Notes under the pieces: generated by a model
Told to the model about the DNA's origin: nothing
Database searches by the model: none
Seen by the model: only the letters and a program-made list of their open reading frames with translations
IMG/VR virus record: IMGVR_UViG_3300032516_000003
Span: 1,341-65,340 of that record
Length of the DNA: 64,000 bases
Source: a virus
Reading direction: 5' to 3' (one strand)
Part shown: positions 863-17,699 of the stretch, in pieces
Layout: the number at the start of each line of letters is the position of its first letter
Position numbering within the stretch: position 1 is the stretch's first letter
Program-made: the position numbers and the translations under genes

Positions 863-891
863 TTGACAGATCGGTAGGAATCGATCATACT
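863..891 (+). promoter_or_regulatory. sigma70-type promoter TTGACA-17-CATACT
   Basis: TTGACA 863-868, 17-nt spacer, CATACT 886-891; shares ATCGATCATA with promoter at 12885. Confidence 0.55.
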
Positions 892-930
892 GAGGTGGTG
901 AACCAGCGACCAGGAGCACTGGAGGCTGTC

Positions 931-1116
931 ATGTGCTGCCCACTCTGTACCGGCGTGCTGCAAGTGTCGATCCCGGCCATCGGGGACCAGGAACCAGTCA
1001 TGAGCTGCCAGGGCTGCAAGGTGGTCCTGACCAGTGACTTCCTGGGCCTGTACATGGACCAGGCTCTTGACCGCGAGCTCATCCACGAGCTCCACCGGGA
1101 GCTGAAGGCCGCCTAG
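931..1116 (+). CDS. small Zn-ribbon protein (CPLC...CQGC), 61 aa
   Basis: GGAGG 5 nt upstream of ATG 931; GC3 becomes high only from this ATG; downstream of TTGACA-17-CATACT promoter. Confidence 0.5.
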   Translation: MCCPLCTGVLQVSIPAIGDQEPVMSCQGCKVVLTSDFLGLYMDQALDRELIHELHRELKAA

Positions 1117-1236
1117 TCTTCCCCCTCCCTGTCCCAGGGCCTGTGGCTCTTCATTGCCTCCATCCCAGTAAGCTATCCCCTGCGAGAGTGTGTCTATTAG
1201 CGACCCCCTGTCATGTGAACCTGGGGTGATATTGGT

Positions 1237-1321
1237 GGGGTAGGATATATACCTACCTTTGATCAACAAGCCCCAGCTACACCTGGTCACACGAACCAGG
1301 GGTAGGAATTATTGGGGTAGG
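1237..1321. promoter_or_regulatory. three GGGGTAGG boxes (1237, 1299, 1314) plus GGTAGG-ATATATA-CCTACC hairpin
   Basis: iteron-like repeats upstream of HNH gene; related GGGTATAGG at 1355. Confidence 0.4.
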
Positions 1322-1394
1322 TGTATGTGCGCTGATCAATTCACCCTCCTTCCAGGGTATAGGTCCTGTACTCTACCTTGAAGGAGGTTAGATC

Positions 1395-2357
1395 ATGCCA
1401 CCTAAACGAGTCCCTGCGGTCGGGGAGCGCTTTGGAGTACTAGAAGTACTGGGGGAAGTTCCGCCGGGACCGGATTGGAAGACCCGCGTGCGAGTTTCCT
1501 GCCATTGCGGTCGCCCGGGGTGCCATCAAGAACGAGTTGTCATGGCCGCATGTCTCTACCGTGGCATGACCACCTCATGTGGAGCCACGGGGAAGGATCT
1601 GGCTGGTCAGCCATTCGGTTTGCTGAAAGTGATCAGCTTTGCCGGAAGGGACGAAAGGAATAGCCTTCTGTGGCTAGTGGAGTGCCGCTGCGGCCGGCAC
1701 AACTGCCGTCATCAGTTCACCGTGAGAGCCAGCCAGCTACTTGGTGCCAAGATCAGATGTTGTGGCGGAAGACGACGTATAACTGATCTAGGACGGACTC
1801 TGAGCCGACACTACAGTGCCTACAAGGGCAGTGCCAAGAAGCGCCGCCTGGAATTCACGCTCTCTCAGGAGGCGTTCGAGCAACTCTGCATTCAGCCCTG
1901 CTACTATTGTGGACTCCTTGATCAGAAGCCCATCTTTACCCAGAAGAAGGGCGACCACACCAGCCGCACAACCGGGCTGAATGGAATTGATAGAGTAGAC
2001 AATACGAGGGGCTACGAGATCACCAATTGTGTACCCTGCTGTGCTACCTGCAACCGCATCAAGTTGGCACTTCCCGAGCAAGCATTCGTCGACCACTGCC
2101 AGAGGGTGGCGACTCACCAGATTGGACAGGGCATGTACACCCAGGAGCAGCTGCGGGAGCTCCAGGCGGCGATCACCCAGAGGCAGGAGGAGGAACATGA
2201 GTTCAACCATGACCCAGTGCATACTCAGGGGACCCCAGAACCAGGTGGACACCCGATGGATCGAATCCCGGCTGGCCCAGAAGGAGAAGCAGCTGGTGGT
2301 CAAGGCTTCCGGCCAGGTGTGGGTGGTAGTGGAGGTGGGAGCGACCTGGCCAACTAA
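1395..2357 (+). CDS. HNH homing-type endonuclease with duplicated N-terminal Cys/His DNA-binding repeats
   Basis: GAAGGAGG SD; C-terminal GLNGIDRVDNTRGYEITNCVPCCATCNRIK HNH motif; two GxxFGxLxVL...CxCG repeats; last ~50 codons have low GC3 and are overlapped by next gene. Confidence 0.8.
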   Translation: MPPKRVPAVGERFGVLEVLGEVPPGPDWKTRVRVSCHCGRPGCHQERVVMAACLYRGMTTSCGATGKDLAGQPFGLLKVISFAGRDERNSLLWLVECRCGRHNCRHQFTVRASQLLGAKIRCCGGRRRITDLGRTLSRHYSAYKGSAKKRRLEFTLSQEAFEQLCIQPCYYCGLLDQKPIFTQKKGDHTSRTTGLNGIDRVDNTRGYEITNCVPCCATCNRIKLALPEQAFVDHCQRVATHQIGQGMYTQEQLRELQAAITQRQEEEHEFNHDPVHTQGTPEPGGHPMDRIPAGPEGEAAGGQGFRPGVGGSGGGSDLAN

Positions 2358-2463
2358 ACGGGTGTTGGACTATGAATGGGACTATGTGACCATGCCGACG
2401 GTCTCGGATGCCCTCACCGGGAAGGATGGGCGGAGAAGGCTCCCGGTGCGGCCTAAAGGGTGA
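2197..2463 (+). CDS. hypothetical protein, 88 aa
   Basis: perfect AGGAGGAGGAAC-ATG start inside the tail of the HNH ORF; GC3-rich in this frame while HNH frame loses GC3 bias. Confidence 0.45.
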   Translation: MSSTMTQCILRGPQNQVDTRWIESRLAQKEKQLVVKASGQVWVVVEVGATWPTKRVLDYEWDYVTMPTVSDALTGKDGRRRLPVRPKG

Positions 2464-2478
2464 AATTGACCCTTTCCC

Positions 2479-2488
2479 CTGGCATAAG
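2479..2488 (+). promoter_or_regulatory. TGGCATAAGG extended -10-like box
   Basis: 46 nt upstream of ATG 2534. Confidence 0.4.
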
Positions 2489-2533
2489 GCTTGTAGAGGT
2501 CGAGATCAACTTTCGCACCTCTAGGAGGCTGAC

Positions 2534-2950
2534 ATGCACGCACATGCTCGTTTCTGCGCATTCGTGAAGGGTGTGGCCATCGTGATTGGCGGTGACGCAT
2601 GCCACACGGTGGAGAGTCTGAAGAAGGCTCTCCGTGGACGCCGGGCCGAGTTAATTGGTCAGGACGTACTCCTGCAGGTCTACGGGGGTCCCGAGGTGGA
2701 CTTCACCGAGATCGCCTCGGTGAAAGTTCTGGTCACCCCGACCAAGATCCAGGTCCTGGACAACAGCTTCGGTGTCAGCCCTATCAAGTGCGGCTGGGCG
2801 TGGTTAGAGTTCGCCCTGAAGGCGGCCGCGGACTTGGAGCTGAAGTCTCGACCCTGGCCGATGACAGAAGCCCCCGTGGCCCCGCGGCCGCAGACGGCTG
2901 CAGAGCAGGTGGCGGGGGACTGGGTCAAGTTCGACAACTACCACCGCTAG
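2534..2950 (+). CDS. hypothetical protein, 138 aa
   Basis: AGGAGG SD, ATG 2534; TGGCATAAGG box 46 nt upstream; two terminator hairpins follow. Confidence 0.65.
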   Translation: MHAHARFCAFVKGVAIVIGGDACHTVESLKKALRGRRAELIGQDVLLQVYGGPEVDFTEIASVKVLVTPTKIQVLDNSFGVSPIKCGWAWLEFALKAAADLELKSRPWPMTEAPVAPRPQTAAEQVAGDWVKFDNYHR

Positions 2951-2954
2951 GAGG

Positions 2955-2972
2955 AGGGCCTTCGGGCCTTTT
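2955..2972 (+). terminator. intrinsic terminator hairpin AGGGCC-TTCG-GGCCTT + TTTT
   Basis: GC stem, tetraloop, T-run after gene 2534-2950. Confidence 0.6.
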
Positions 2973-3003
2973 AGTCCCTACACGTCGCCCAGGGACTATT
3001 TTG
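2973..3003 (+). terminator. second hairpin AGTCCCT-N11-AGGGACT + ATTTT
   Basis: 7-bp stem followed by T-run; tandem with 2955-2972. Confidence 0.5.
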
Positions 3004-3126
3004 GGGTCCTGATATGTCCTCGATCAAATAGATACAATAGTCCATAGCTGTTTACCATGTACGGGCCCCACTGTTCAAGTCATCCACTCAACGAGGGGCG
3101 GAAGCCCTAGTCCCCACCAGATCGAG

Positions 3127-3136
3127 GTATAAGAAG
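3127..3136 (+). promoter_or_regulatory. GGTATAAGAA -10-like box
   Basis: after double terminator, 18 nt before ATG 3154. Confidence 0.4.
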
Positions 3137-3153
3137 CATGAAAGGAGAACACC

Positions 3154-3240
3154 ATGCGTGTGATCTTCCAGAAGGCCCGTCTCATGGTCATCCTCGTTCC
3201 CCAGAACGGCGCCATCCAGGTCGCCTGGTTCAAGGGCTGA
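3154..3240 (+). CDS. small ORF, 28 aa (MRVIFQKARLMVILVPQNGAIQVAWFKG)
   Basis: AAAGGAGAA SD; TGA overlaps ATG of next gene (ctgACATG); below ORF-table size cutoff. Confidence 0.35.
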   Translation: MRVIFQKARLMVILVPQNGAIQVAWFKG

Positions 3241-3241
3241 C

Positions 3242-3457
3242 ATGCCCTGCGTCTACGTGAAGTTCCCACTGACCAACCCGCCGCTGGCCAGGTACTCGGA
3301 CCAGCGGTTCTCCTTCCACTTCCTTCGCGTCCCCTGCGTGGGGGAGATCGTCGACACCCGGGATGCCAAGTGGGTGGTGCACCGGGTGGTGCACCACGCC
3401 GGCGAAGACATCCTCCCGGACGCCACCGCGACCATCTTCGTCCGACTGGAGGAGTAG
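3242..3457 (+). CDS. hypothetical protein, 71 aa
   Basis: translationally coupled to upstream small ORF and directly abuts HD-domain gene. Confidence 0.5.
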   Translation: MPCVYVKFPLTNPPLARYSDQRFSFHFLRVPCVGEIVDTRDAKWVVHRVVHHAGEDILPDATATIFVRLEE

Positions 3458-4081
3458 ATGGCTCACATCGCCGATCTCATCCAAGCCTGCCGGGTCTGCT
3501 GCTGGCCGGCTCTCGTCACCCTGGTCCCCGAGCTCAAGACTCTGGAGGGCCAGTCCCAGCACCGGGGAGCTGGCGTCGATGTGGCTGAGCACACTCGCCT
3601 CATGCTGGTCCAGTGCCCCAAGGAGGATGATGTCCTGCTTCTTGCCTGCTTGCTGCACGACCTGGGGAAGCCCCAGACGGCCGAGCCCAACCGCAAGGGC
3701 GGCTGGCAATTCCCCGACCATGCCGCAGTCGGTGCCGCCATGGTCCAGCCGATTCTGGAGCGCTTCGACGGTGTGGACACTGACCTGAGCATCCGGCTGC
3801 ATGGCCTGGTGTTCGCCCACATGATGCCACATGGGGGCGAGATCTTGGACATGGGGCCGGACACCGAGCGCTTGATCGACCTGGCCGAGCTCGACTCGGG
3901 CTCCTTCCTCAACCGCTCGGTGGGCAAGGTCCGGGAGCGCTTCAATGCGCTGCGGGTCAAGCACCACCTCCCCGAGCGGCCCTTCCCCCCGCCAGAGCCC
4001 ATCTCCAGGGCTCTGGAGGAGTACCAACGAGTCTGCCTGCAGGGCAAGGAGCCGCGCTATGATGGACCTCAAGCGGCCTGA
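3458..4081 (+). CDS. HD-domain metal-dependent phosphohydrolase
   Basis: LLLACLLHDLGKP motif (H...HD...K) typical of HD superfamily; GGAG SD; ATG 3458. Confidence 0.75.
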   Translation: MAHIADLIQACRVCCWPALVTLVPELKTLEGQSQHRGAGVDVAEHTRLMLVQCPKEDDVLLLACLLHDLGKPQTAEPNRKGGWQFPDHAAVGAAMVQPILERFDGVDTDLSIRLHGLVFAHMMPHGGEILDMGPDTERLIDLAELDSGSFLNRSVGKVRERFNALRVKHHLPERPFPPPEPISRALEEYQRVCLQGKEPRYDGPQAA

Positions 4082-4207
4082 GATCGTCTGTCCCCACCGT
4101 GGGGACAGACGCCTTCCCTGGCTCTGGCTGCCCCGCCCCATGAAGTTCCCCCAGAAGCGTCGGCGGAAGATCCGGCTCATCCGGATCCGGCCGATCGTCT
4201 TCAACTA

Positions 4208-4227
4208 GGCCCTCGGGGCCTTTCCTT
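4208..4227 (+). terminator. hairpin GGCCC-TCG-GGGCC + TTTCCTT
   Basis: ends + strand HD-gene operon. Confidence 0.5.
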
Positions 4228-4246
4228 AGGATGCAGGCTAAGGAAA

Positions 4247-4265
4247 GGGGCCGGCTGCCGGCCCC
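4247..4265 (-). terminator. hairpin GGGGCCGG-CTG-CCGGCCCC (T-rich on minus side)
   Basis: ends minus gene 4275-4523; convergent terminator pair. Confidence 0.5.
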
Positions 4266-4274
4266 TTCTGCGGT

Positions 4275-4523
4275 TCACGGCAGTAGTCGGATGTTCCTGA
4301 TGCCGTCTACACACATGCTCCACAACGTCCTGAAGATGATGTAGCCATCGCGAAGGCCGAAGGTAGCCTGCCAGCGACTTCTCCCAGAGACTGCTTTGAC
4401 TGTCACTTCTGCGTTGCATACGTCGATGTAGGCTGAGACATCGGCGGTACGTAGCACCCCGCGGCTATCCTTGTACTGCAATGCGGGCCACTGCTGATCA
4501 CTATGCGGATTCGGGCAAGACAT
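4275..4523 (-). CDS. hypothetical protein, 82 aa
   Basis: AGGAGG SD before ATG 4523 (minus); convergent with HD operon, hairpin terminators 4208-4265 between them. Confidence 0.6.
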   Translation of the reverse strand: MSCPNPHSDQQWPALQYKDSRGVLRTADVSAYIDVCNAEVTVKAVSGRSRWQATFGLRDGYIIFRTLWSMCVDGIRNIRLLP

Positions 4524-4544
4524 GAAGGCACCTCCTGAATGACC

Positions 4545-4554
4545 TTCTTATACC
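4545..4554 (-). promoter_or_regulatory. GGGTATAAGA -10-like box
   Basis: minus strand, 22 nt upstream of ATG 4523. Confidence 0.4.
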
Positions 4555-4576
4555 CCAATAATGATCATTCGATCAG

Positions 4577-4586
4577 GTATAAGTCT
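4577..4586 (+). promoter_or_regulatory. AGGTATAAGT -10-like box
   Basis: 51 nt upstream of ATG 4637; divergent from 4545 box. Confidence 0.4.
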
Positions 4587-4636
4587 AGTAGAACAGAAGT
4601 TTTACTTTCGTCCGAAACGATCAGAAAGGAGGATCG

Positions 4637-5023
4637 ATGCGGTATCAGATCGTAGATGCCCTCTACGGCGTGCACATGAACACCGTGACCCCTCGGCTTG
4701 TCAGCGAACTTCTGGCGGAACACGGTTATGATCTTCGGGATCTGAAGCCCGGGGAGATGATCCCGATCTTCAACAACAGCTGGGAGTGGGGCGGACTCTG
4801 CGATAGCCGTACTCCGCCCCGCTTCAAGGTCGTCGTCAACGAAGACGGCCTGATCTACCTGAAACAGCCGGTCCACGAAGTGCTCGACCAGATCAGCGGG
4901 CCGCTGAAGTTCAGTATCTACATCCACGCCCACATCACCTGTCCAGCGAAGATCCGGGAGCAGCTGGCCAACTCGCTGGCGAAGCAGAGGCTTGCACTAC
5001 AGAACAAAAGGAGGAAAGCATGA
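4637..5023 (+). CDS. hypothetical protein, 128 aa
   Basis: AAAGGAGGA SD; AT-rich promoter region upstream with GGTATAAG box. Confidence 0.7.
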   Translation: MRYQIVDALYGVHMNTVTPRLVSELLAEHGYDLRDLKPGEMIPIFNNSWEWGGLCDSRTPPRFKVVVNEDGLIYLKQPVHEVLDQISGPLKFSIYIHAHITCPAKIREQLANSLAKQRLALQNKRRKA

Positions 5024-5481
5024 ACTGGAAGAAGATCAAAGGCCGGGGCACCGGCAGTCTCTTCAGCCTGCAGGATCGGCTGAAAATGATGCAGGACCGC
5101 ACGAACGGGCGCAATATCCTCGACATAGCAAAGGAGACCGGCTGCTCCCAGTCGACCCTCGTCACCATGACGGTTCTCATGGTGAAGGAGGGCTACCTCA
5201 GAAGGGTCGGCCACAAGAAGTACCGCATGACCGAGAAGGGGAAGGAGGCGCTGGCGGAGCGGCCGCGGCCGAAGATGGAACTGGTGGAGAGGCCGGGCGG
5301 GGTGGAGCTCAAGATCACGCCGGCCTCGCAGATGAAGGTGGAGGAGACTCCATCGGCGGCCATCAACGACAAGATGAAAAGCCTGGAGGAGGAACTCGCC
5401 TACCAGCAGGCCTCACGGCCGTTCCTCCTCAACATGGGGTGGAAAGTCAGGCTGATGATGGAACTGGAGAAGGCCAAGTGA
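5020..5481 (+). CDS. winged-helix DNA-binding protein
   Basis: AAAAGGAGGAAAGC-ATG; ILDIAKETGCSQSTLVTMTVLMVKEGYLRRVGHKKYRMTEKG is MarR/wHTH-like; ATGA coupling to upstream gene. Confidence 0.7.
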   Translation: MNWKKIKGRGTGSLFSLQDRLKMMQDRTNGRNILDIAKETGCSQSTLVTMTVLMVKEGYLRRVGHKKYRMTEKGKEALAERPRPKMELVERPGGVELKITPASQMKVEETPSAAINDKMKSLEEELAYQQASRPFLLNMGWKVRLMMELEKAK

Positions 5482-5711
5482 GGGTGATCCATCGAGGAGG
5501 ACACCCCGCCCAGGTCATCATCACCTCAGGTCCAGATCTGGAATCCGACGTCCGTTCGAACACGCCGGACTACCAGCCCGATCCCTGGGGTGACTACGAC
5601 CAGGAGAAGAACGGCTACACCAACTCGGAGACCCATGAGTTCTCCCCGGGTCCCGATCGCCCCGCTAAGAAACTCCCACCTCGCGGCCCCCGGGGCCGCT
5701 TCACCACCTGA
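5478..5711 (+). CDS. possible small gene (GTG start), 77 aa
   Basis: in-frame GTG overlapping stop of 5020 gene; GC3-rich; no clear SD; terminator hairpin follows at 5759-5776. Confidence 0.3.
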   Translation: MRVIHRGGHPAQVIITSGPDLESDVRSNTPDYQPDPWGDYDQEKNGYTNSETHEFSPGPDRPAKKLPPRGPRGRFTT

Positions 5712-5758
5712 AAGAGATGCTCACTCCTGGGGCATAAGGATCATGACAGGAGATGGTT

Positions 5759-5776
5759 ACCCCTTCGGGGGTTTCC
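5759..5776 (+). terminator. hairpin ACCCC-TTCG-GGGGT + TTCC
   Basis: after gene ending 5711; GGGCATAAGG box lies 25 nt upstream. Confidence 0.5.
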
Positions 5777-5790
5777 GTTAACCCGTAGAC

Positions 5791-6276
5791 CTACTTGAAG
5801 AGAAGACGGGCCGGCAACTGGGTCTGGTGCATCGGCGGCATGGCCTTGTGGACCGGGCGGGCCTTCAAGGCCTTCAGGGCCACCTCGGCGGGCTGGGAAG
5901 CTGGCGGAGGCTCGGGGCGACGCGGCTGCCCGACAGGCCGCGTTCTTGACCTCTCAGCCCGGCGAAGCTCGTCCTCGACCCGATGCCGCAGGCCGATCTC
6001 CAATACCGCGGCCCGTACCTGGTTGAGTGCCTCACCCTGCTCGTTGACCTGCTTGCGCAAGGCTTCGAGGTTGGCCGGTAGTTCCTTGTTGATCGTCTGG
6101 GCCACCTTCTGATACACCGCATCGACCGTCTTCTCGCTGGCCTTCTGCTGCCAGACCCCGAAGACACCTACGATCGCGGCCATGACGATCGGCACCAGGA
6201 GTTTCTCGATGGTCGTCTCCCAGATCTTGATCAGGAGGCCGTATAGGAAGGAGTGCTTCTTGGTCTCATCGCTCAT
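5791..6276 (-). CDS. membrane-anchored coiled-coil protein, 161 aa
   Basis: start MSDETKK at 6276; one TM helix (LLVPIVMAAIVGVFGVW) then heptad-rich helix and Pro-rich C-terminus; longer upstream extension has no SD. Confidence 0.55.
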   Translation of the reverse strand: MSDETKKHSFLYGLLIKIWETTIEKLLVPIVMAAIVGVFGVWQQKASEKTVDAVYQKVAQTINKELPANLEALRKQVNEQGEALNQVRAAVLEIGLRHRVEDELRRAERSRTRPVGQPRRPEPPPASQPAEVALKALKARPVHKAMPPMHQTQLPARLLFK

Positions 6277-6305
6277 GTGACCATAGTACAACAAGCGTAG
6301 GATTC

Positions 6306-6315
6306 TGGCATAAGA
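6306..6315 (+). promoter_or_regulatory. TGGCATAAGA extended -10-like box
   Basis: 28 nt upstream of ATG 6343. Confidence 0.4.
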
Positions 6316-6342
6316 AAGACATTCTACCCAGGAGGTTATCCC

Positions 6343-6654
6343 ATGGCCCTTAGTGGAGATCGCTGCGCCTGGTACCGCTGCACAGGCGAGATCGACGTCA
6401 TCTATGGTGCCTGCTTTGCCAAGAACGGGGAGCGGCTGAACATCCCGCTCTGTGAGCGACACTGGGGCAAGATCGCCGGCCTAGGATCAATCGAGGCGGG
6501 TGAGGTCTTGCAGAAGAGTGTGCCCAACATTCGGATCGACATCGGGAGGACTAATGAAGCCGCTCTACAAGACCACCATCGTCATCTGGTCCGAGTACGA
6601 CCCGACGGAGAAGTACGAGCTCAAGGAGCTCGCCAACGAGGCCGAGCAGGGTGA
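6343..6654 (+). CDS. hypothetical Cys-containing protein
   Basis: CAGGAGG SD; TGGCATAAGA box 28 nt upstream; last ~30 codons lose GC3 and are overlapped by next gene. Confidence 0.5.
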   Translation: MALSGDRCAWYRCTGEIDVIYGACFAKNGERLNIPLCERHWGKIAGLGSIEAGEVLQKSVPNIRIDIGRTNEAALQDHHRHLVRVRPDGEVRAQGARQRGRAG

Positions 6655-6751
6655 CGCCTACTGCAGCAAGATGCGGGCGACCCTGATCGACAAGCCCCAC
6701 GAGGACCCCGACTGGGACAACACCGAATTCTTCGACGACGTGGAGGATTGA
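6554..6751 (+). CDS. hypothetical acidic protein, 65 aa
   Basis: GGGAGG SD, ATG 6554; good GC3. Confidence 0.55.
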   Translation: MKPLYKTTIVIWSEYDPTEKYELKELANEAEQGDAYCSKMRATLIDKPHEDPDWDNTEFFDDVED

Positions 6752-6753
6752 TC

Positions 6754-7011
6754 ATGGCGTGCGCAAGGCTTAGTCACGAAGATCTGAGGGCCCTTCGAAA
6801 GCACGGCCACCCCAATTTCTGGGAGGTGGCCATCTACGGCAAGGCATCGCGCCCAGATTCTGTGACCGTAGAGTGTACCAAGTGTGGGGAGGTGCTGATT
6901 GAATTGGTGAGCTTGGACCTCGAACGGCAGAATCGAGAGCTCCTCCGCTACCTGAGGGAGTCGGGGAAGCGCATGGCCAAGGATTTCTTTCCGGATGCAG
7001 TCAAGCGATGA
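6754..7011 (+). CDS. hypothetical protein (CTKCGE zinc-knuckle like)
   Basis: GGAGGA 6 nt before ATG 6754 (TTG 6748 also possible). Confidence 0.6.
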   Translation: MACARLSHEDLRALRKHGHPNFWEVAIYGKASRPDSVTVECTKCGEVLIELVSLDLERQNRELLRYLRESGKRMAKDFFPDAVKR

Positions 7012-7078
7012 GCCAGACGACGTTCCCCCTGTCCCTGTGGTGCTGCCCTCACTGCCGTAGCGGTCACTGGAGGAGGCC

Positions 7079-7606
7079 ATGAGCGAAAAGAGACTGGTCA
7101 GAATCTACATCGGCGGGCAGGTCAGCCCCGAGACCGCCAGGACGCTGGTGGAGCGCATCAAGGCCATCCACGGGGCCCTGGATGACTACTGGTCCACTCC
7201 GCCCCAGGACGTCGACCAGCTGGTCGCTTACGCAGTCAAGGAGAAGTGGGTCGGACTGAGACATGAAGACTGGCCGCAGGCCTTCGAGGAGCTGGAGGAG
7301 TGGTGCCAGGAGGAGCGCATCCCCTACGACGAGGTCCTGCCGCCCTTCGGGGAGTTCCCAGGGGTCATCGCCTACTACCGCCCTGCCGCCCGAGTGGGAA
7401 CGAGACTGATGCCGCGGCTCAGGGTCAGCCGCAACTGTGACTTCTTCGGCAACCCCATCCTGGAGTGGAGGGAGGTCCGGAAGGTCCTGGAGATGCTGCG
7501 AACGCGCACCTTGGCGCGAGCACGAACCGCGAAGGCTGACTCCATGCTGGAGGAGCTTCTGGGCAAGGATGTCCATGAACTGCCGCCCTTCGAGATGCGG
7601 CCATGA
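7079..7606 (+). CDS. hypothetical protein, 175 aa
   Basis: GGAGGAGG SD; GC3-rich. Confidence 0.7.
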   Translation: MSEKRLVRIYIGGQVSPETARTLVERIKAIHGALDDYWSTPPQDVDQLVAYAVKEKWVGLRHEDWPQAFEELEEWCQEERIPYDEVLPPFGEFPGVIAYYRPAARVGTRLMPRLRVSRNCDFFGNPILEWREVRKVLEMLRTRTLARARTAKADSMLEELLGKDVHELPPFEMRP

Positions 7607-8057: not shown

Positions 8058-8065
8058 GGTGACCA

Positions 8066-8440: not shown

Positions 8441-8455
8441 TTTGTGGAGGAGCGT

Positions 8456-9969: not shown

Positions 9970-9970
9970 T

Positions 9971-10574: not shown

Positions 10575-10577
10575 TCA

Positions 10578-10607: not shown

Positions 10608-10631
10608 AGCCCTGACACGGGGAGGCGAAGG

Positions 10632-11146: not shown

Positions 11147-12022
11147 CGAATTCGCCGCCCCACGCAGCGGATCTATGTCGGTCTTCTTGATCTCGTCCCA
11201 GTCCAGTGGTTGCTTGTCGATGTAGTTGGTGAGCTCGTCGGCCTTCGACTGCAGACCCTTCGCCGCGGTGATGAGAGCCTGCAGGTTGCGGATGACCACG
11301 ACCGTCGGGGACTGAGTGGTCTTGAGCTTCTTGTCCTTCAACCGTTCCTTGCTCTCCTCCTGAGTCTCTTCCAGCATCACCCGCAGTTCTTCCTGCTGCT
11401 GCTTCTTGGGTAGGCGTGTGAGGCGGTTGGCCTGGTCGATCGTGATGAGTCCACGGTCGAGAGCCCGGCTGGCGGAAGGACACAGGTTCGCCGCCCGCTT
11501 TAGCGTCTCGCGGGCCTTGCTAGGGCTCACGCCTAGTTCCTTCGCCAGTTCCTTCACTGCTGTCTCTCGTGGCAAGGTCGGCCGGCCTGGCGATGGCTTC
11601 GTGCCCGAGCGCTTGTGCCGCTCAGCTTCGTCGGCAGCCTTCTTGGCCGCCTCGGTTTCGAGCAACTCTCCATAGCGCTTGAGACCCCAGCGCAGTTCGC
11701 TTTCCTTGGGGCTGCGGCGGTGCAGGTTCTCGATGATCGACAGGATCTCGGCGGTGCGGTCGTCGACTTGAGCTACCGCACAACGCGCCTCCTTGATCCC
11801 CTCCGCCTTCATGGAGAGGTAGCGCACCCGGCCGGCCAGGAGCTCGTAGGTGCCACTGATCTTGCCCTTCACCTGCCGGACTAGCAGCTGGTGCAGCTGA
11901 CCGAACTTGGCGATGCTGCCACCAAGTTCATCGATGTCTTTCGGGGTGATCTCTCGCTGCCAGTGGACGGGGCTGATATGGATGGCAGCGAGTGGGATGA
12001 TCTTGTCCTTGTACGGTATCAT
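11111..12022 (-). CDS. ParB-like nuclease-domain protein
   Basis: AGGAGG SD before ATG 12022 (MIPYKDK); N-terminal IPLAAIHISPVHWQRE...LGGSIAKFGQLHQLLVRQV...YELLAGRVRYL matches ParB/Srx N-domain, then HTH (TAVKELAKELGVSPSKARETLKRA). Confidence 0.8.
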   Translation of the reverse strand: MIPYKDKIIPLAAIHISPVHWQREITPKDIDELGGSIAKFGQLHQLLVRQVKGKISGTYELLAGRVRYLSMKAEGIKEARCAVAQVDDRTAEILSIIENLHRRSPKESELRWGLKRYGELLETEAAKKAADEAERHKRSGTKPSPGRPTLPRETAVKELAKELGVSPSKARETLKRAANLCPSASRALDRGLITIDQANRLTRLPKKQQQEELRVMLEETQEESKERLKDKKLKTTQSPTVVVIRNLQALITAAKGLQSKADELTNYIDKQPLDWDEIKKTDIDPLRGAANSLLDLAGLVETS

Positions 12023-12053
12023 CAGCGCCTCCTGGGTAAAGGAGTGGGTGGGC

Positions 12054-12092
12054 ACACCCGTAGACATGCCCACCCACTCGCTCTCGGTCTAG
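12054..12092. promoter_or_regulatory. perfect 13-bp inverted repeat GAGTGGGTGGGCA-N12-TGCCCACCCACTC
   Basis: between histone-fold gene stop and ParB-like gene SD; no T-tract on either side. Confidence 0.5.
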
Positions 12093-12286
12093 AAGTCCTC
12101 CAGCCGCACCGTGGCACGGCCGTTGGCCTTGCAGCGTCCGATTGCTTCGTTGACCCTGTCGGCCATCCACTGGTGGATGCCTTCCGCTGTCTCGCCGGCG
12201 AGGCGCAGACCGGCATCGCTGATGAGCTCCTTGAGCGAGGACGTGACGATGAGACGGGGTGCTTCCTTCACTTCCTTCTTGGCCAT
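12089..12286 (-). CDS. histone-fold protein (archaeal/bacterial histone-like), 65 aa
   Basis: AGGAGGAAGCA-ATG; full-length collinear similarity to HMf-type histone fold (LISDAGLRLAGETAEG...NGRATVRLEDF vs IIKDAGAERVSDDAR...GRKTIKAEDIE). Confidence 0.7.
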   Translation of the reverse strand: MAKKEVKEAPRLIVTSSLKELISDAGLRLAGETAEGIHQWMADRVNEAIGRCKANGRATVRLEDF

Positions 12287-12325
12287 TGCTTCCTCCTGGG
12301 TGAACCGGGGACCATCCCCGGAGTC

Positions 12326-12754
12326 TCAGCACTGCTTGTTGACGGCGAACATCACGGATGCGCGAAGGATGTCCTCGCAGACCCGCCGGCGCATGACGTC
12401 CTCGTCCTTGATCGAGGGACGAACCACGTGTACATCGAAACAGGAATACGACTCCTTGTCAACCGCTTGCTTCCAGCGGTAGCTCTGGACGATCCACCCC
12501 TTCACTACCCGCGTCTCCTGCCTGGTCAGTGGTGGCAGATGCGGACCGGGGTCCTCCTTCAGCCACTCCACCATCACATAGATGTCCAGAGGTGATACCC
12601 AGAGTGCCGCCTTGAAGTCCCACTCCCTGTATCGCCAGACCTGGGCGAGCTCTGGTAGGGGGCCGTGGGTAGGGTGTAGTGGGTCTCCGATCGCCTCATC
12701 TGGCCACTCCCCCAGGGGCGGTATGATGATGTCATAGAGTAGCTTGGGCTGCAT
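12326..12754 (-). CDS. hypothetical protein, 142 aa
   Basis: GGGAGG SD before ATG 12754 (MQPKLLYD); first gene of the minus-strand trio. Confidence 0.6.
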   Translation of the reverse strand: MQPKLLYDIIIPPLGEWPDEAIGDPLHPTHGPLPELAQVWRYREWDFKAALWVSPLDIYVMVEWLKEDPGPHLPPLTRQETRVVKGWIVQSYRWKQAVDKESYSCFDVHVVRPSIKDEDVMRRRVCEDILRASVMFAVNKQC

Positions 12755-12884
12755 GTTACCTCCCAACGTCAGTGATGCTCTTATCACACATTCCTGTGGT
12801 GTTTTCTAAGGCCGGGAAATCCCAACGATCCTGTGGCATAAGCCCGGTACGCACTGCTGATCGCTAAATTGTTCACTTTGGGGC

Positions 12885-12913
12885 TTGACAAAGCCGTGGT
12901 GATCGATCATAGT
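12885..12913 (+). promoter_or_regulatory. sigma70-type promoter TTGACA-17-CATAGT
   Basis: upstream of H1-like gene; spacer/-10 GATCGATCATAGT nearly identical to promoter at 863. Confidence 0.55.
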
Positions 12914-12949
12914 GTTTCTGTCAAGGCCGATCAACCCAGGAGGTACGGC

Positions 12950-13456
12950 ATGTACAACACGGACCAGTGGAAGATCATGAAGCAGCTCGCCGGCTCACTC
13001 CCGAAGCGTGAGTCCCTCAAGATCGGGGACATCAAGGACAAGTGCTTCAAGTCTGCCCCCAACGACCGCGTGGTGCGGAACGCCATCCGCAAGCCGGTCG
13101 CCGAGGGCCACGTCGAGATCGCCGATCGTGGCGACTATCGGCTGACGGCGAAGGGCGCCGCCTTCTGCCAGAAGATGGAGAAGGAGGGCTTCAAGCCGGC
13201 GTCAGTGCGTCAGATGGCGAAGCCGTCTCAATCGATCAAGAAGAGTGCCAAGAAGGCCGCCCCGAAGAAGGTGGCCAAGAAGAGTGCCAAGAAGGCCGCC
13301 CCGAAGAAGGTGGCCAAGACCAACGGAGCCAAGGTCGAGTCCAAGCCGACCGAGAAGTCCCAGGCCCCCGAACCCAAGAAGAGCTCGGTCAAGATCCCCC
13401 GCCCCAAGAAGGACGAGTCGGCAGCTGCCGTTCCTCCGTCCACTCTCAGCTTCTAG
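12950..13456 (+). CDS. H1/Hc1-like DNA-binding protein: wHTH-like N-domain plus Lys/Ala/Pro repeat tail
   Basis: CAGGAGG SD, ATG 12950; tail KKSAKKAAPKKVAKKSAKKAAPKKVAK...KKSSVKIPRPKK; downstream of TTGACA-17-CATAGT promoter; terminator hairpin 13483-13513. Confidence 0.75.
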   Translation: MYNTDQWKIMKQLAGSLPKRESLKIGDIKDKCFKSAPNDRVVRNAIRKPVAEGHVEIADRGDYRLTAKGAAFCQKMEKEGFKPASVRQMAKPSQSIKKSAKKAAPKKVAKKSAKKAAPKKVAKTNGAKVESKPTEKSQAPEPKKSSVKIPRPKKDESAAAVPPSTLSF

Positions 13457-13482
13457 CAGCATCCTCCTACTGCTTGATCATC

Positions 13483-13513
13483 AAAGGCCTCACGAGGAGG
13501 CCTTTGGTGTTTC
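13483..13513 (+). terminator. hairpin AAAGGCCTC-N5-GAGGCCTTT + GGTGTTTC
   Basis: after H1-like gene. Confidence 0.55.
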
Positions 13514-13523
13514 AGGAGATCGC

Positions 13524-13727
13524 ATGGCCGACAAACCCGAGAACGAAGAACTCACTCGCTTGGCAGTGCTGATGATAAAGCGGCGTGATCAGATTTTGCT
13601 TCTGGACAAGCTCACCGCCCTAGAGAAACGACTGGACAAGTTGTGCCGCCGGATGAAGGACTGTGAGGAGCTAGTTGCCTGGTCACGGCGGCGTAGGCCG
13701 ATCAAGAAGACGAGGAGGAAGCGATGA
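13524..13727 (+). CDS. hypothetical small basic protein, 67 aa
   Basis: CAGGAGATCGC-ATG. Confidence 0.5.
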   Translation: MADKPENEELTRLAVLMIKRRDQILLLDKLTALEKRLDKLCRRMKDCEELVAWSRRRRPIKKTRRKR

Positions 13728-14179
13728 ACGAGAAGATCGATGTGATCGATGACCAGGAGCGACGCGCTCAGATCCTGCTGTTGGGGGACGCACTCTTTCA
13801 CTTGCTCTCAGAGCGGTTTTCGAGCTACTGTCTGGACAACGAGGGAGAACGCGCCGACCTATCGGTGGCACTCGCCGAGTGGCTGATCGTAGCGGACAAG
13901 ACGACCGAGATCACGCAGCAGATCACACTGCCGCGTGCAAAGAGCAGGGTAGGGTTCAATGTGGTCGATGAGGTGACAGGCAAGAGAATCGTCTACCTGG
14001 AACTCGAACGCGACCGGATGATGACCGATGGCGACTTTCTCCAGCTTCAGAACTTCTTCTGGACCACCATCGGCCTAGCGATCGTTGATCACCCTGAGGT
14101 CATCAGAACGCTGCAGGCCGCCGGCATCAAGGTCACCCGTGGTGGTGACGACGAGGGAGGACAGCTAGCACCCGCCTGA
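13724..14179 (+). CDS. hypothetical protein, 151 aa
   Basis: GGAGGAAG SD, ATGA coupling. Confidence 0.65.
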   Translation: MNEKIDVIDDQERRAQILLLGDALFHLLSERFSSYCLDNEGERADLSVALAEWLIVADKTTEITQQITLPRAKSRVGFNVVDEVTGKRIVYLELERDRMMTDGDFLQLQNFFWTTIGLAIVDHPEVIRTLQAAGIKVTRGGDDEGGQLAPA

Positions 14180-14211
14180 ACGCCGTCGGGCATCTCCGGC
14201 AGGAGGAACGA

Positions 14212-14664
14212 ATGCTGGAGATCACACTTGCAGCACTCCTACTGCTTCACCCAGACCCAGATTCGAACGCGGTACAGCACTACGCCCAGTACATCACGGA
14301 GGGGGGAGAACGGGTCGACATCGACCCGCTACTGGTAGTGGCGCTCATCCATCGGGAAGGCCGATGGAATCCCAAGGCTAAGAGTGGCAAAGGCGACTTC
14401 GGGCTGATGCAGATACGGGCACGGTCCTACAAGCGCTTCCGCAACAACCCCAAGAAGCTCCTTGACCCCCAGGTGAACATCACGGTAGGAATCGAGACTC
14501 TCGCCATGTGGCGAGAGTTCCACCAGAAGAACTGCGGCAAGAAGCGGCACGACTGGTGGGCGCACTATCAACACGGGATGCACGTAGGCAACAATCGATC
14601 AGCGCAGCGTGTCGAGCGACTGTGGCACTGGCTGCGTGAACGAACCAGGAGACATGAGACATGA
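14212..14664 (+). CDS. lytic transglycosylase (SLT domain) with N-terminal hydrophobic segment
   Basis: GGCAGGAGGAACGA-ATG; ALIHREGRWNPKAKSGKGDFGLMQI matches SLT catalytic region (E...S...GLMQ). Confidence 0.8.
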   Translation: MLEITLAALLLLHPDPDSNAVQHYAQYITEGGERVDIDPLLVVALIHREGRWNPKAKSGKGDFGLMQIRARSYKRFRNNPKKLLDPQVNITVGIETLAMWREFHQKNCGKKRHDWWAHYQHGMHVGNNRSAQRVERLWHWLRERTRRHET

Positions 14665-15422
14665 CCTTCCCCATCATCGGCCTCTGCGGTGTAGCAGGTG
14701 TCGGCAAGGACGTAGTGGCTGACTTCTTCGTCGAGAAGGGCTTCGCCAAGGTCGCCTTCAGCGATCCGATGAAGCGCTTCATCCAGTATCTCTTCAACCT
14801 CGATGACGAGCAGCTGTGGGGTCCCTCGAAGACCCGCAACGAGGAGATCACCTTCACTGAAGAGGAGTGGGTTGGCATCACCCAGCGCATGGAGCAGGAG
14901 GCCTGGGACTTCGTCGAGGAGACGCGGATGAAGTGCCAGGTGCCGGCTTTGCTCGGTCTCTGGGACTGGCTCGGGGTCCTCTACCACCAGCAGAAGATTT
15001 CGCCGCGCATCATCCTGCAGACGTTGGGCACCGAGTGGGGACGCACCCTAGATCTGCACGTCTGGACGGACTACCTGCATCGGGTAGTCCGCCCCCAAAT
15101 GGAGATAGGGTACACCTACTCGGCTCAGAAGGGAGTGGAGGAGCGACGGCAAGAGTTTGCCGGCATCATCATCCCAGATCACCGCTTCGCCAATGAGGTC
15201 ATGGCCACTCGTGAAGCCGGCGGCTACATGATTCGCGTACACCGACCTGGCCGGCCGCAAGAGATAACTCTCCCAGGCATCCAGGGGCACGCCAGTGAGA
15301 AGGAGCAGGAGACTCTGGCGGCTGACTTCTTCCACAGCGAACTCTTGATGCCGGAGGGGCTGGATCGAGCACATGCAGTTCTGGAGGACTTTTTCTTCAA
15401 GCGCCCGTGGGGTGTGGGCTAG
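14661..15422 (+). CDS. deoxynucleoside-monophosphate kinase (T4 gp1-like)
   Basis: IIGLCGVAGVGKDVVADFF vs T4 gp1 LIFLSGVKRSGKDTTADFI; IIIPDHRFANEV...MIRVHRPG vs YIVPDTRQDHEM...VIHVVRPG. Confidence 0.8.
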   Translation: MTFPIIGLCGVAGVGKDVVADFFVEKGFAKVAFSDPMKRFIQYLFNLDDEQLWGPSKTRNEEITFTEEEWVGITQRMEQEAWDFVEETRMKCQVPALLGLWDWLGVLYHQQKISPRIILQTLGTEWGRTLDLHVWTDYLHRVVRPQMEIGYTYSAQKGVEERRQEFAGIIIPDHRFANEVMATREAGGYMIRVHRPGRPQEITLPGIQGHASEKEQETLAADFFHSELLMPEGLDRAHAVLEDFFFKRPWGVG

Positions 15423-15428
15423 AGAGAC

Positions 15429-15459
15429 GGGGTGGGCCGGACGACACCGGCCCACCCCA
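15429..15459. terminator. hairpin GGGGTGGGCCGG-N7-CCGGCCCACCCC between convergent genes
   Basis: 12-bp perfect GC stem; weak T-tracts. Confidence 0.5.
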
Positions 15460-15465
15460 CCGAGA

Positions 15466-15870
15466 TCAGACCTTCTCAATCTCGTAGTTCGTGCGGTTCC
15501 CGTCTTTCGTCTCCTTGACCAGGACGGGGATCCCAGTTGGGAACTCCTCCCACATCTTCGCTTCGATCGCGGCGCGGTGTGCCTCGTCGAAGACGTCATC
15601 TCCCCTGTACTTGTGGCTGTGGTCGTTGTCGCGGAAAGGCACCCACAGGTGTGGGCGGCGCCCTTCCACGACTTCGACAATGACGGTGGGTGTCAGGAAA
15701 CCGTGCCGATGGAGCGTACCGTCATGACGTTCCTCGTCGATGGGCGGCAGGTAGCGAGTGTCGTGTCCAGAGACTACGCAGTTGTAGATCTTCACCGGGA
15801 TGGTCGCAGTCGTTTCCTTCTCGGACTTGTCCTTCTTGGTCGTTTCCTTCTTGGTGGTCTTCGTGGTCAT
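15466..15870 (-). CDS. hypothetical protein with Thr/Lys-rich N-terminus, 134 aa
   Basis: GGAGGACAGC-ATG; convergent to dNMP kinase with perfect 12-bp-stem hairpin 15429-15459 between; CGGTATAAGG box upstream. Confidence 0.65.
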   Translation of the reverse strand: MTTKTTKKETTKKDKSEKETTATIPVKIYNCVVSGHDTRYLPPIDEERHDGTLHRHGFLTPTVIVEVVEGRRPHLWVPFRDNDHSHKYRGDDVFDEAHRAAIEAKMWEEFPTGIPVLVKETKDGNRTNYEIEKV

Positions 15871-15912
15871 GCTGTCCTCCGGCTGAAGGCTGATGGTTCA
15901 CTTCGTGTTTAC

Positions 15913-15922
15913 CTTATACCGT
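15913..15922 (-). promoter_or_regulatory. CGGTATAAGG -10-like box
   Basis: minus strand, 43 nt upstream of ATG 15870. Confidence 0.4.
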
Positions 15923-15933
15923 GGGAGGATCAA

Positions 15934-16539
15934 ATGTTGATTGGGATCGATGAGGCCGGCATGGGCACCTTGGCCGGCCCCATGACTGCCGCAGTGGTGG
16001 TCCTGGCCGACGATGCACAGATCAAAGGTGTCCGTGACTCCAAGACCATGAACAACGAGCAGCGGGAGGAAGTCGCGGCCAGGATCATGACCGCAGCGTT
16101 GTTTTACCAGGTCGGTTCTCGGGAAGCTGAGGACATCGACAAGCGGGGGCTCTCCAAGTGCTGGCTGGAGCTGGTCCGCGAGCTGGCCATCGCAGCCAAG
16201 GCAGCCCTGTCCGAGCAGCTGATGGACAAGCCCACGAACGAGAAGATCATCCTAGACGGCAACCGGCTGATCGGGTTACCCTATGTGATACCCGTGGTCA
16301 AGGCCGATGCCACGCATCTCGCCGTCTCCGCCGCGTCGATCCTCGCCAAGTACAAGCAAGTGTGCGCAATGATCGACGCCCATAGGCTCTATCCAGCCTA
16401 CGGCTTCTTAGAACATCACGGCTACTGTACGATCAACCACAAGACCAAACTGAGGGAGCGGGGACCATGTCCAATCCATCGCAGGAGCTTCCGACCGGTG
16501 AGGGACCTTACTCGGTCTTCTGGTTCCGGACGCGGCTAG
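15934..16539 (+). CDS. rnhB: ribonuclease HII
   Basis: GTGGGAGGATCAA-ATG; IGIDEAGMGTLAGPMTAAVVVL, DSKTM, ASILAKY and C-terminal HRRSFRPV are RNase HII hallmarks. Confidence 0.9.
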   Translation: MLIGIDEAGMGTLAGPMTAAVVVLADDAQIKGVRDSKTMNNEQREEVAARIMTAALFYQVGSREAEDIDKRGLSKCWLELVRELAIAAKAALSEQLMDKPTNEKIILDGNRLIGLPYVIPVVKADATHLAVSAASILAKYKQVCAMIDAHRLYPAYGFLEHHGYCTINHKTKLRERGPCPIHRRSFRPVRDLTRSSGSGRG

Positions 16540-16718
16540 GGACGTTGTACACCATGCCGGACATGTTGCCACAGCATGTCGACGAGGCCCACCGGCAGCT
16601 GGACCTGCCGGTGACCAACATCACGTTGCGCAACATCAGTGATGTGGCTATGGTAGTACCGCGGCGGATCATCAAATCCGCCGGCGCCAATGATCGGTGC
16701 TTCTGGGAAGCCCCATGA
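16467..16718 (+). CDS. hypothetical protein, 83 aa
   Basis: GGGAGCGGGGACC-ATG; overlaps 3' end of rnhB. Confidence 0.5.
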   Translation: MSNPSQELPTGEGPYSVFWFRTRLGTLYTMPDMLPQHVDEAHRQLDLPVTNITLRNISDVAMVVPRRIIKSAGANDRCFWEAP

Positions 16719-17215
16719 TCTGCATCAATTGCGGCTGTGTGATCGGGCAGCAGTTCCTCTTCCAGGGCGTGGTGGTCTGTGGCGACTGCTACAAGATCGC
16801 CAGCCACTACCTGCAGCGGACCAAGACCGAGCTGCAGATGCTGGTCCAGACCTACATGGAGATGCTGCGCGTGGCGCTCATCAAGGGTCAGCTCCGGCCG
16901 CCGCGACTACCGGCCGGGGAGCTACCGCGGCGACAGTTCACCAAGGCATTCCAACAACTGTTGGAGGAGATCACCGATGCGGACCGAGCCAAGAAAACCA
17001 CGAATGGCGACGGCACAGTGCAGGGCCTGCGGAGCGAAGCGGAGGATACCCGACGTGAACTTCGAGCTGGGCACCATGCTGAAGCCGTACTCAGGGGGCG
17101 GGAACTACGGCCACTGCCTGAAGTGCAAGCGGGCCGGGACACTGATGATCATCGAGACTCCGCCACAGCCGGAGCCGACGCTGCCGACGGGATGGACCAA
17201 ATACCCAGGAGGTGA
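16715..17215 (+). CDS. Zn-ribbon protein (CINCGC...CGDC); C-terminus uncertain
   Basis: ATGA coupling; coding-like GC3 only to ~16990, remainder overlapped by next gene. Confidence 0.45.
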   Translation: MICINCGCVIGQQFLFQGVVVCGDCYKIASHYLQRTKTELQMLVQTYMEMLRVALIKGQLRPPRLPAGELPRRQFTKAFQQLLEEITDADRAKKTTNGDGTVQGLRSEAEDTRRELRAGHHAEAVLRGRELRPLPEVQAGRDTDDHRDSATAGADAADGMDQIPRR

Positions 17216-17222
17216 GACGTGA
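16977..17222 (+). CDS. Zn-ribbon protein (CRACGAK...CLKCKRAG), 81 aa
   Basis: GGAGGAG SD before ATG 16977. Confidence 0.5.
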   Translation: MRTEPRKPRMATAQCRACGAKRRIPDVNFELGTMLKPYSGGGNYGHCLKCKRAGTLMIIETPPQPEPTLPTGWTKYPGGET

Positions 17223-17674
17223 GTGCTTTCGAGATCTGGCTGGGCGAGCGGAAGATTGCGACTCCTACACAATACAGTTGGAACCAACCCTTCGTCCCAG
17301 GGTCGGCGCCGAGCGAGTGGCACGTGTGGCCGGGGATGAAGAGCATCGGCCTGTTCTACTTCCGGCGCCTGACCCTAGAGCCGCCGGTACTCTTTGAGCA
17401 TCTGTCCGGGGTGGGTCTGGCGGCCTTCCTGGACCATTGTGACTTCAAAGTCATCGGCGACGGACGCACCACCATCCACGAGGACCTACGCTACATTCAC
17501 GGGCGCAGTGAGGCCATGAAGGGCAATCCCCAGGTCAGCGCCGTGGTGCTGGCCAAGATAGAACCGGCGGAGGACTTCAATGAGCTCAAGTTCCGGACCC
17601 AGATCCCCAACATCTACCGCGAACTGCTGGCCCAGATGACTGGGGCTCCGACGGTCCCCGAACAGAAGACTTGA
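17219..17674 (+). CDS. hypothetical protein (GTG start), 151 aa
   Basis: GGAGGTGAGAC-GTG. Confidence 0.6.
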   Translation: MSAFEIWLGERKIATPTQYSWNQPFVPGSAPSEWHVWPGMKSIGLFYFRRLTLEPPVLFEHLSGVGLAAFLDHCDFKVIGDGRTTIHEDLRYIHGRSEAMKGNPQVSAVVLAKIEPAEDFNELKFRTQIPNIYRELLAQMTGAPTVPEQKT

Positions 17675-17699
17675 CAGGGACAGACACTGTCTGTATGAC
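17671..17699 (+). promoter_or_regulatory. promoter-like TTGACA-17-TATGAC with embedded palindrome ACAGACAcTGTCTGT (17680-17694)
   Basis: perfect 7-1-7 palindrome fills the spacer and overlaps -10: operator-in-promoter architecture. Confidence 0.45.

Follow-up and report, generated by a model that had tools for sequence, protein, structure and literature searches.

Two putative promoter classes and a conserved symmetric control site in an uncultivated giant phage

Three sites at which TTGACA is followed, after 17 nucleotides (nt), by a -10-like hexamer were analysed in 64,000 nt of viral DNA (IMG/VR record IMGVR_UViG_3300032516_000003, positions 1,341 to 65,340 of that record; the whole stretch is called the window here). 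The explanation that we favour, with moderate confidence, is that this phage would use two promoter classes, a rare class I that would be read by the host RNA polymerase and includes sites 1 and 2, and a common class II with the motif TGG(T/C)ATAAG, and that site 3 would be a gated weak promoter. The most likely reading of sites 1 and 2 is that of genuine host-type promoters, belonging to a class that is rare in this phage; site 3 is a real conserved control element, whose status as a promoter is uncertain. An initial annotation had described the three sites, and its coordinates and sequences proved exact for all of them:

863-891, plus strand: site 1, putative class-I promoter with TTGACA (863-868), 17-nt spacer and CATACT (886-891)
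12885-12913, plus strand: site 2, putative class-I promoter with TTGACA (12885-12890), 17-nt spacer and CATAGT (12908-12913)
17671-17699, plus strand: site 3, with TTGACA (17671-17676), 17-nt spacer and TATGAC (17694-17699), and the dyad ACAGACAcTGTCTGT at 17680-17694

At all three sites the -35 hexamer matches TTGACA in 6 of 6 positions and the spacer length is the same. A consensus scan of positions 1-20000 ranked sites 1 and 2 as the top two promoter-like sites (10/12 each) and made no call at site 3, where the second hexamer lacks the final T. Taken by itself, the pattern is only marginally over-represented: TTGACA-N16-18-NATNNT was observed twice in the 64 kilobases (kb), with 0.47 expected, and 7 of 100 shuffles reached this count. 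TTGACA alone is not enriched (12 on both strands versus about 17 estimated from base composition), and perfect 7+1+7 palindromes are at chance level in the window (7 versus 5.2 expected). The marginal pattern count and the expected frequency of palindromes of this size would suit the view that the sites are chance resemblances without function, which we nevertheless regard as extremely improbable. The sites stand above chance because each is located directly upstream of a ribosome binding site and a start codon, and because of their conservation in relatives; for sites 2 and 3, conservation of position and pattern over many diverged relatives contradicts a chance origin. Furthermore, ATCGATCATA is present at sites 1 and 2 only, in identical register, with 0.06 copies expected and none of 100 shuffles reproducing it. 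The search for further copies that the initial annotation had proposed found none in the window. A motif scan of IMG/VR with TTGACA-N13-ATCGATCATA returned 11 unrelated low-GC contigs, which were dismissed as chance matches.

The reading of sites 1 and 2 as -35/-10 promoters was upheld, site 2 being conserved in the pattern of the sigma-70 family and site 1 belonging to the same sequence class. Both sites are located in divergent control regions, as had been described. The features around site 2 are:

12869-12884, plus strand: conserved block TTGTTCACTTTGGGGC, abutting the -35 hexamer of site 2
12950-13456, plus strand: winged-helix/H1-like gene, first gene downstream of site 2, encoding 168 amino acids (aa) with a Lys/Ala-rich H1/Hc2-like tail
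12835-12842, plus strand: class-II motif GGCATAAG, in tandem with site 2 and 43 nt upstream of it
12780-12786, minus strand: class-II variant TGATAAG, facing the leftward 142-aa gene 12326-12754

Site 2 is conserved in front of the orthologous winged-helix/H1-like gene in nine distinct relatives, those with readable upstream regions, whose proteins are roughly 47-81% identical across the N-terminal domain. In all nine, TTGAC is invariant and the spacer is 17 nt long with a variable sequence. The -10 hexamer varies (CATAGT, CATTAT, TAAGGT, TATTGT, CATCCT, CAGCTT, CATTCT and CAATCT), with A2 and T6 present in every one; these are the bases that sigma-70-family factors flip out and bind (PMC7598289). 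Because TTGAC, the spacer length, A2 and T6 are kept while the spacer sequence and the rest of the hexamer vary, we read site 2 as a sigma-70-family site, and its pattern of conservation provides good comparative evidence for a predicted promoter of the sigma-70 type. The same architecture was found before other genes in relatives (in L044, L046 and L049 at about 1010-1030, and in L047 at 15 and 1394), and the consensus over 14 class-I sites is gCTTGACa-N17-CAWnnT with an invariant TTGAC. Site 1 agrees with the consensus of the class, written TTGACn-N17-CAWnnT, and has cGAT in front of its hexamer.

Among the five closest distinct relatives, the block adjoining the -35 hexamer of site 2 hardly varies; it may bind a regulator or act like an UP element. 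Other class-I sites, site 1 among them (GGAACAAAGG, 851-860), also have GAACAA/TTGTTC upstream. In the locus L047 (45% GC), GAACAA/TTGTTC palindromes bracket or precede the class-I promoters at 15-60 and 1370-1420 (GAACAATCTAT...ATAGATTGTTC and TTGAACAATGCTGTTCAA), and their half-site is the one adjoining sites 1 and 2 of the window. Two further candidates in the site-2 region were not retained: a leftward promoter-like site from the consensus scan (12934-12906), the spacing of which is not kept in the relative L017, and a supposedly covarying inverted repeat in the left half of the region, which is better explained by two divergent GG(C/G)ATAAG copies.

Both promoters had been placed beside DNA-binding genes. 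For site 2 this was substantiated: the AlphaFold model of the H1-like protein has a predicted local distance difference test score (pLDDT) of about 90 for residues 1-80, with a helix-helix-helix-hairpin-helix topology and a disordered Lys/Ala tail, Foldseek matched it to winged helices of the MarR family and of AspA, and its homologs bear Hc2-type tails. The helix-turn-helix (HTH) assigned to the leftward gene 69-437 next to site 1 came down to a weak, sub-threshold Pfam match. Close to the winged-helix gene, a ParB_N/HTH protein is encoded at 11111-12022 on the minus strand, and the fold matches of the winged-helix protein include the pNOB8 centromere-binding protein AspA; it is conceivable that the pair forms a partition-like or DNA-organising module.

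The sequence shared by sites 1 and 2 had also been interpreted in terms of a conserved GATC that would be methylated in Dam-positive hosts. In this case both promoters would be Dam-regulated and the GATC at the edge between spacer and -10 hexamer would be their functional feature. The sequence GATCGATC or ATCGATC indeed abuts the -10 hexamer at both sites, an arrangement known from Dam-sensitive promoters, which carry GATC in or next to the -10 or -35 element. GATC occurs in 9 of 13 class-I spacers versus about 16% expected, at drifting positions and in sequences that are not independent of one another. However, GATC is common genome-wide (one per 117 nt, at Markov expectation) and is not enriched upstream of start codons, and for this reason we rejected it as an upstream signal of general use. 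The TGATCA form is limited to close relatives; in distant ones the aligned position reads TGACCA or TGGTCA, without GATC. Since GATC is absent there, the Dam idea is without support, and we regard it as very improbable. Unlike in Dam-sensitive promoters, the GATC found here is unconserved in distant orthologs and a by-product of the TGATCA form of the signature. Judged from the alignments, what sites 1 and 2 share as ATCGATCATA is a local version of the class signature tGRY-CAWnnT.

A second, more abundant motif had been missed by the initial annotation. GGYATAAG occurs 13 times in the window versus 0.97 expected, all copies being intergenic and pointing at a gene, and in a search for k-mers enriched in non-coding DNA, 8 of 8 copies of GGTATAAG and 5 of 5 copies of GGCATAAG were intergenic. 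With variants there are about 17 intergenic copies, each directed towards a gene and, where the start codon is clear, located about 18-28 nt before it:

456-463 (minus strand), 2481, 3126, 4547 (minus), 4576, 5731, 6307, 9975, 12780 (minus), 12835, 15913 (minus), 29129 (minus), 35243 (minus), 35586 (minus), 35626, 61277 and 61937: class-II copies
456-463, minus strand: class-II copy GGTATAAG, in front of the leftward gene 69-437 and 18 nt from its ATG

The logo reads T-G-G-(T/C)-A-T-A-A-G, with no -35 element. The motif is kept in relatives at orthologous places; for example, GG(C/G)ATAAG is retained in them at the position of the copy in tandem with site 2, and they have GG(C/G)ATAAG where the window carries the variant TGATAAG. 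The 9 kb to the left of the window contain three more class-II copies and no further class-I site. TGG(T/C)ATAAG is probably the main promoter class of the phage itself, outnumbering class I. A sigma-54 reading, suggested by TGGCAT-N5-TTG at 2481, fails at the other copies when these are inspected by eye. At 5731-5785, GGCATAAG is followed about 25 nt on by the hairpin ACCCCTTCGGGGGT plus TTTCC, and a hairpin of another sequence is present at the same place in the relative L015 (about 4677); this hairpin could be a small RNA or a mini-ORF (open reading frame) of 10-12 codons.

Site 3 had been described as a textbook case of an operator placed over a promoter, with a perfect palindrome filling the spacer. 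We compared 20 distinct orthologous regions, collected in a metagenome scan with the conserved 371-aa downstream protein. The gene that directly follows the site is:

17712-17996, plus strand: conserved ORFan of 94 aa, with the real start probably at TTG 17718, 7 nt after GGAGAGG

The layout is the same in 20 of 20 relatives, with TTGAC, 2-4 nt and the dyad (G)TACA(T/G)AC-N3-GT(A/G/C)TGTA(C). Invariant in all of them are TTGAC, ACA.AC and GT.TGT, that is ACAnAC-N3-GTnTGT with a free 3-nt centre. The TGA inside TTGAC is the stop codon of the gene 17219-17674, and the TTGAC nucleotides are kept whatever the preceding codon (ACT, GCT or TCT). Since TTGAC is kept though this codon varies, site 3 is selected as a DNA or RNA sequence and not for coding. 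The dyad is present in one copy per locus and the 94-aa gene always follows the element in relatives. Between the hexamer and the probable TTG start there are 18 nt, a geometry that resembles the other promoters of this phage.

The element is symmetric and probably bound by a protein, and to this extent the earlier description stands; a textbook promoter it is not. Two points weigh against a promoter here. The -10 hexamer in relatives is TA(C/T)nnn, whose T1 and A2 belong to the dyad and are kept with it, and T6 is found in only 6 of 20 relatives, being missing in the other 14 as well as in the TATGAC of the window; a transcription start about 7 nt after the hexamer would fall within the Shine-Dalgarno sequence 17704-17710. 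As to a protein that would bind the dyad, no DNA-binding fold emerged for the 94-aa product, which has no Pfam or PDB match and gave an AlphaFold model too poor to use (pLDDT 50.6). The perfection of the palindrome, which had been taken as meaningful, is incidental: several relatives have mismatched arms (L027, L044-L046 and L049), and the covariation test was negative.

The main rival explanation for site 3 is an intercistronic RNA hairpin after the stop codon, controlling processing, stability or translation of the 94-aa gene; we consider it possible, if unlikely. The position of the site between two co-oriented genes, with the upstream stop codon inside TTGAC, would suit such a hairpin, as would the poor -10 hexamer. 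The arms of the window, ACAGAC/GTCTGT, differ from the common ACATAC/GTATGT on both sides, like a compensated variant. Moreover, in most relatives a second conserved hairpin, GGCTAAAG...CTTTAGCC, abuts the ATG, and the leaders of these relatives fold well (z -2.9 and -4.6). Against the hairpin, 86.7% of the cells pair in the site-3 alignment versus 85.6% in shuffles, with 134 of 500 shuffles equal or better, and on this negative covariation test it was rejected as the explanation for site 3. Of the 20 relatives, 5 lack the mid-stem pair, no U-tract or T-run follows the stem, the hairpin of the window is not unusually stable (z = -1.2), and the window has no Rfam match. The conservation of TTGAC irrespective of the preceding codon also counts against it, and an unconserved loop between arms of invariant sequence is the signature of a DNA site bound by a dimer. 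Because the arms are conserved, the centre is free and covariation is lacking, a dimeric DNA-binding protein is favoured. The hairpin GGCTAAAG-loop-CTTTAGCC was seen in L029, L031, L035, L037, L043, L048, L022 and others and not in the window's own clade; the Shine-Dalgarno-like sequence, if any, is located inside or before it. In L029 an additional long-range helix encloses TTGAC.

Site 3 is therefore best read as a predicted protein operator on a weak internal promoter. This promoter would belong to class I and would be gated by a dimeric DNA-binding protein on the 15-19 bp dyad that fills its spacer. The binding protein may be the conserved 94-aa product encoded just downstream, which by its position is a candidate autoregulator of the dyad. 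The arrangement resembles operators over core promoters, such as those of lac and tet, LexA boxes and the sites of phage repressors, in which a dyad with conserved half-sites and a free centre is placed between -35 and -10; the single copy per locus and the conserved small gene directly downstream correspond to the usual autoregulated layout. It differs from them in its poor -10 hexamer, and in that the cognate protein is only a candidate here. A MerR-type mechanism needs a spacer of 19-20 nt and is excluded at site 3 because the spacer is 17 nt long.

For class I, TTGAC(a)-N17-CAWnnT, the layout is that of promoters read by the bacterial housekeeping sigma factor, and we infer that the host RNA polymerase would use these sites without phage factors. 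If so, the class-I genes would be expressed early or continuously. The genes served in this way would be the zinc-ribbon ORFan downstream of site 1 and, at site 2, the winged-helix/H1-like DNA-binding protein and its operon. The common, -10-only class II would be read by a phage-directed polymerase or sigma-like factor; it stands in tandem with site 2 and would drive the divergent genes at both regions.

Some observations speak against this assignment. The -10 hexamer begins with C, directly after tGRY, in 12 of 14 class-I sites, which is atypical for host sigma-70 promoters; C at -12 and tGRY persist in relatives that range from 33 to 64% GC, and this could indicate that a specificity factor of the phage is at work instead. 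For site 1, relatives give no support, both flanking proteins being without homologs outside this phage. Finally, the window yielded no polymerase or sigma gene, and neither it nor the fetched loci contained a beta' DxDGD or beta motif, the readable DNA of this phage being about 73 kb (the 64-kb window and 9 kb to its left) of a genome of more than 200 kb. It might also be that class-I sites are read by a phage-encoded sigma-like factor or a polymerase of its own specificity and not by host sigma-70. The tGRY is conserved one position off the canonical extended -10 TG, the relatives that share the class probably have different hosts, and each class-I site lies 17-55 nt downstream of GG(G/C)ATAAG. 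On the other hand, TTGACA, the 17-nt spacing and A-11/T-7 are exactly what housekeeping sigma factors use across bacteria, and the missing sigma or polymerase gene counts here against a phage factor; we regard this alternative as rather unlikely. The same degree of doubt applies to a more far-reaching version, in which both classes would be read via phage-encoded specificity factors of a new kind in an undescribed clade of sediment jumbo phages (33-64% GC), with the dyad as an autoregulatory switch bound by the 94-aa ORFan. This version is prompted by C at -12 and tGRY in class I and by the G that class II has where sigma-70 needs T-7.

With host polymerase reading class I, the picture would be one of two tiers, and two-tier transcription programmes have precedents in T4 and SPO1 (PMC6024815, PMC13401047). 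The T4 early and SPO1 sigma-A early promoters share with class I the TTGACA, the 17-nt spacer and the A2 and T6 of the -10 hexamer, they precede small early-type genes and a DNA-binding protein, and a separate phage-specific class coexists with them. Unlike in these phages, the first -10 base is mostly C here, after tGRY, and there are only two or three sites in 73 kb, in tandem behind GG(C/G)ATAAG. For class II the closest parallels are of another type. The T4 late promoter, which depends on gp55, consists of the -10-only sequence TATAAATA. Like this promoter and like the early motifs of jumbo phages, TGG(T/C)ATAAG is short, highly conserved, AT-rich for a 60% GC genome and without a -35 element, and it is located close to gene starts throughout the non-structural region; in contrast to them, it has a G in place of the T-7 of sigma-70. 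To our knowledge its sequence is unlike any phage promoter class, and a literature search for a promoter of the TGG(T/C)ATAAG type gave no match. Jumbo phages that encode polymerases have conserved AT-rich early-promoter motifs of about 10 nt (PMC7598289). From these systems the present phage differs in that the readable part of its genome yielded no phage polymerase or sigma gene.

The surroundings of site 1 differ from the syntenic region of relatives and are rich in repeats. The features are:

931-1116, plus strand: 61-aa CxxC...CxxC zinc-ribbon ORF, first gene downstream of site 1, with GGAGG 6 nt before the ATG
69-437, minus strand: gene for a 122-aa basic protein, divergent from site 1, with a winged-helix-like Pfam match that is weak and below threshold, and no homologs
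754-773: left arm of a perfect 20-nt inverted repeat, CCCCAGGTTCACATGACAGG; the repeat brackets site 1 and the zinc-ribbon ORF
1207-1226: right arm of the inverted repeat, CCTGTCATGTGAACCTGGGG, the arms being 433 nt apart

Site 1 ends 39 nt upstream of the zinc-ribbon ORF, which has no family matches and was found in the same phage only (L023-L025). The core of the inverted repeat, CACATGACAG, occurs three times, always within the site-1 region, and the third 10-nt copy (CTGTCATGTG, 926-935) overlaps the ribosome binding site and ATG of the zinc-ribbon ORF. It is equally possible that the cores are operators or that, in longer transcripts, they pair as RNA and so mask the start codon.

Perfect 20-nt inverted repeats that enclose a promoter might also delimit an invertible or mobile cassette (754-1226), a flip of which would aim site 1 at the leftward gene 69-437. 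The absence of the region from relatives would agree with such a cassette, and one assembly (L025, about 300-355, corresponding to window position 773) has 52 extra nt with scrambled partial copies of the left arm, which reflect either strain heterogeneity or an assembly artefact. Because all three independent assemblies show one and the same orientation, however, inversion is unsupported. No recombinase was seen among the proteins scanned, and there is no target-site duplication. The third core copy over the start codon fits operators or RNA pairing better, and the leftward gene already has a GGTATAAG motif of its own. A cassette is thus improbable, and we keep to the reading of site 1 as a class-I promoter in a divergent control region.

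Further repeats were noted nearby. The direct repeat CCTTAGCAGGCACACACT is located upstream of site 1 at 774-791 and 805-822, 31 nt apart, with degenerate inverted copies near 601-614 and 1186-1202, and looks like an iteron or operator array. GGGGTAGG is present in three copies (1237, 1299 and 1314). The 493-nt divergent region contains a perfect AT-rich palindrome, ACTATTTGAAATAGT (687-701), in the part of the window with the lowest GC content.

The window, with a base composition of 60% GC, comes from a very large lytic myovirus that is uncultivated and found in sediment and wetland metagenomes only. The same phage is present on a 193.7-kb metagenomic contig (ERZ27248201:k141_3956766; 100% identity across the 20.5 kb compared), and because this contig ends inside the window, the genome size is put at more than 200 kb. 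The 20.5-kb comparison with L014 shows 100% identity in two blocks, interrupted within the Lys/Ala repeats of the H1-like gene (window 13200-13456), the product of which is 168 aa long in the window and 155 aa long in L014. Relatives include contigs of 137 kb (Ga0105093_10000004) and 133 kb (Ga0265342_10000045). The product of the tail sheath gene (46632-48203) is 34% identical to the sheaths of phiKZ-like jumbo phages. An endolysin with Amidase_2 and PG_binding_1 domains is encoded as well, and ParB-like, deoxynucleoside monophosphate (dNMP) kinase and HNH genes are present. Two large proteins of the window, which have no match among phages or in PDB, look like a tape measure and a baseplate protein. 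Nucleotide comparison of the window with known phages gave no match, and tRNA and Rfam scans of it found nothing. Weak HVO_ and HTH_10 Pfam matches had raised the possibility of a haloarchaeal virus, which was rejected in view of the median predicted isoelectric point of 7.8 and the peptidoglycan amidase endolysin. About 5-7.6 kb to the left of the window start, in L023 of the same phage (1492-4074, minus strand), an 860-aa protein is encoded whose Pfam matches are to families of the major vault protein (Vault, Vault_3 and MVP_shoulder); a GGTATAAG motif is located upstream of its gene.

All three sites are ordinary in kind, since host-like promoters and operators in phage genomes are textbook matter. 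The value of the analysis is a first map of transcription signals for an uncultivated and undescribed clade of giant phages. The map comprises a conserved, predicted host-type promoter before a histone-like DNA-binding gene, a conserved dyad that probably serves as a control site, and the dominant GG(T/C)ATAAG motif. These signals could help to tell early from later genes in related metagenomic contigs.

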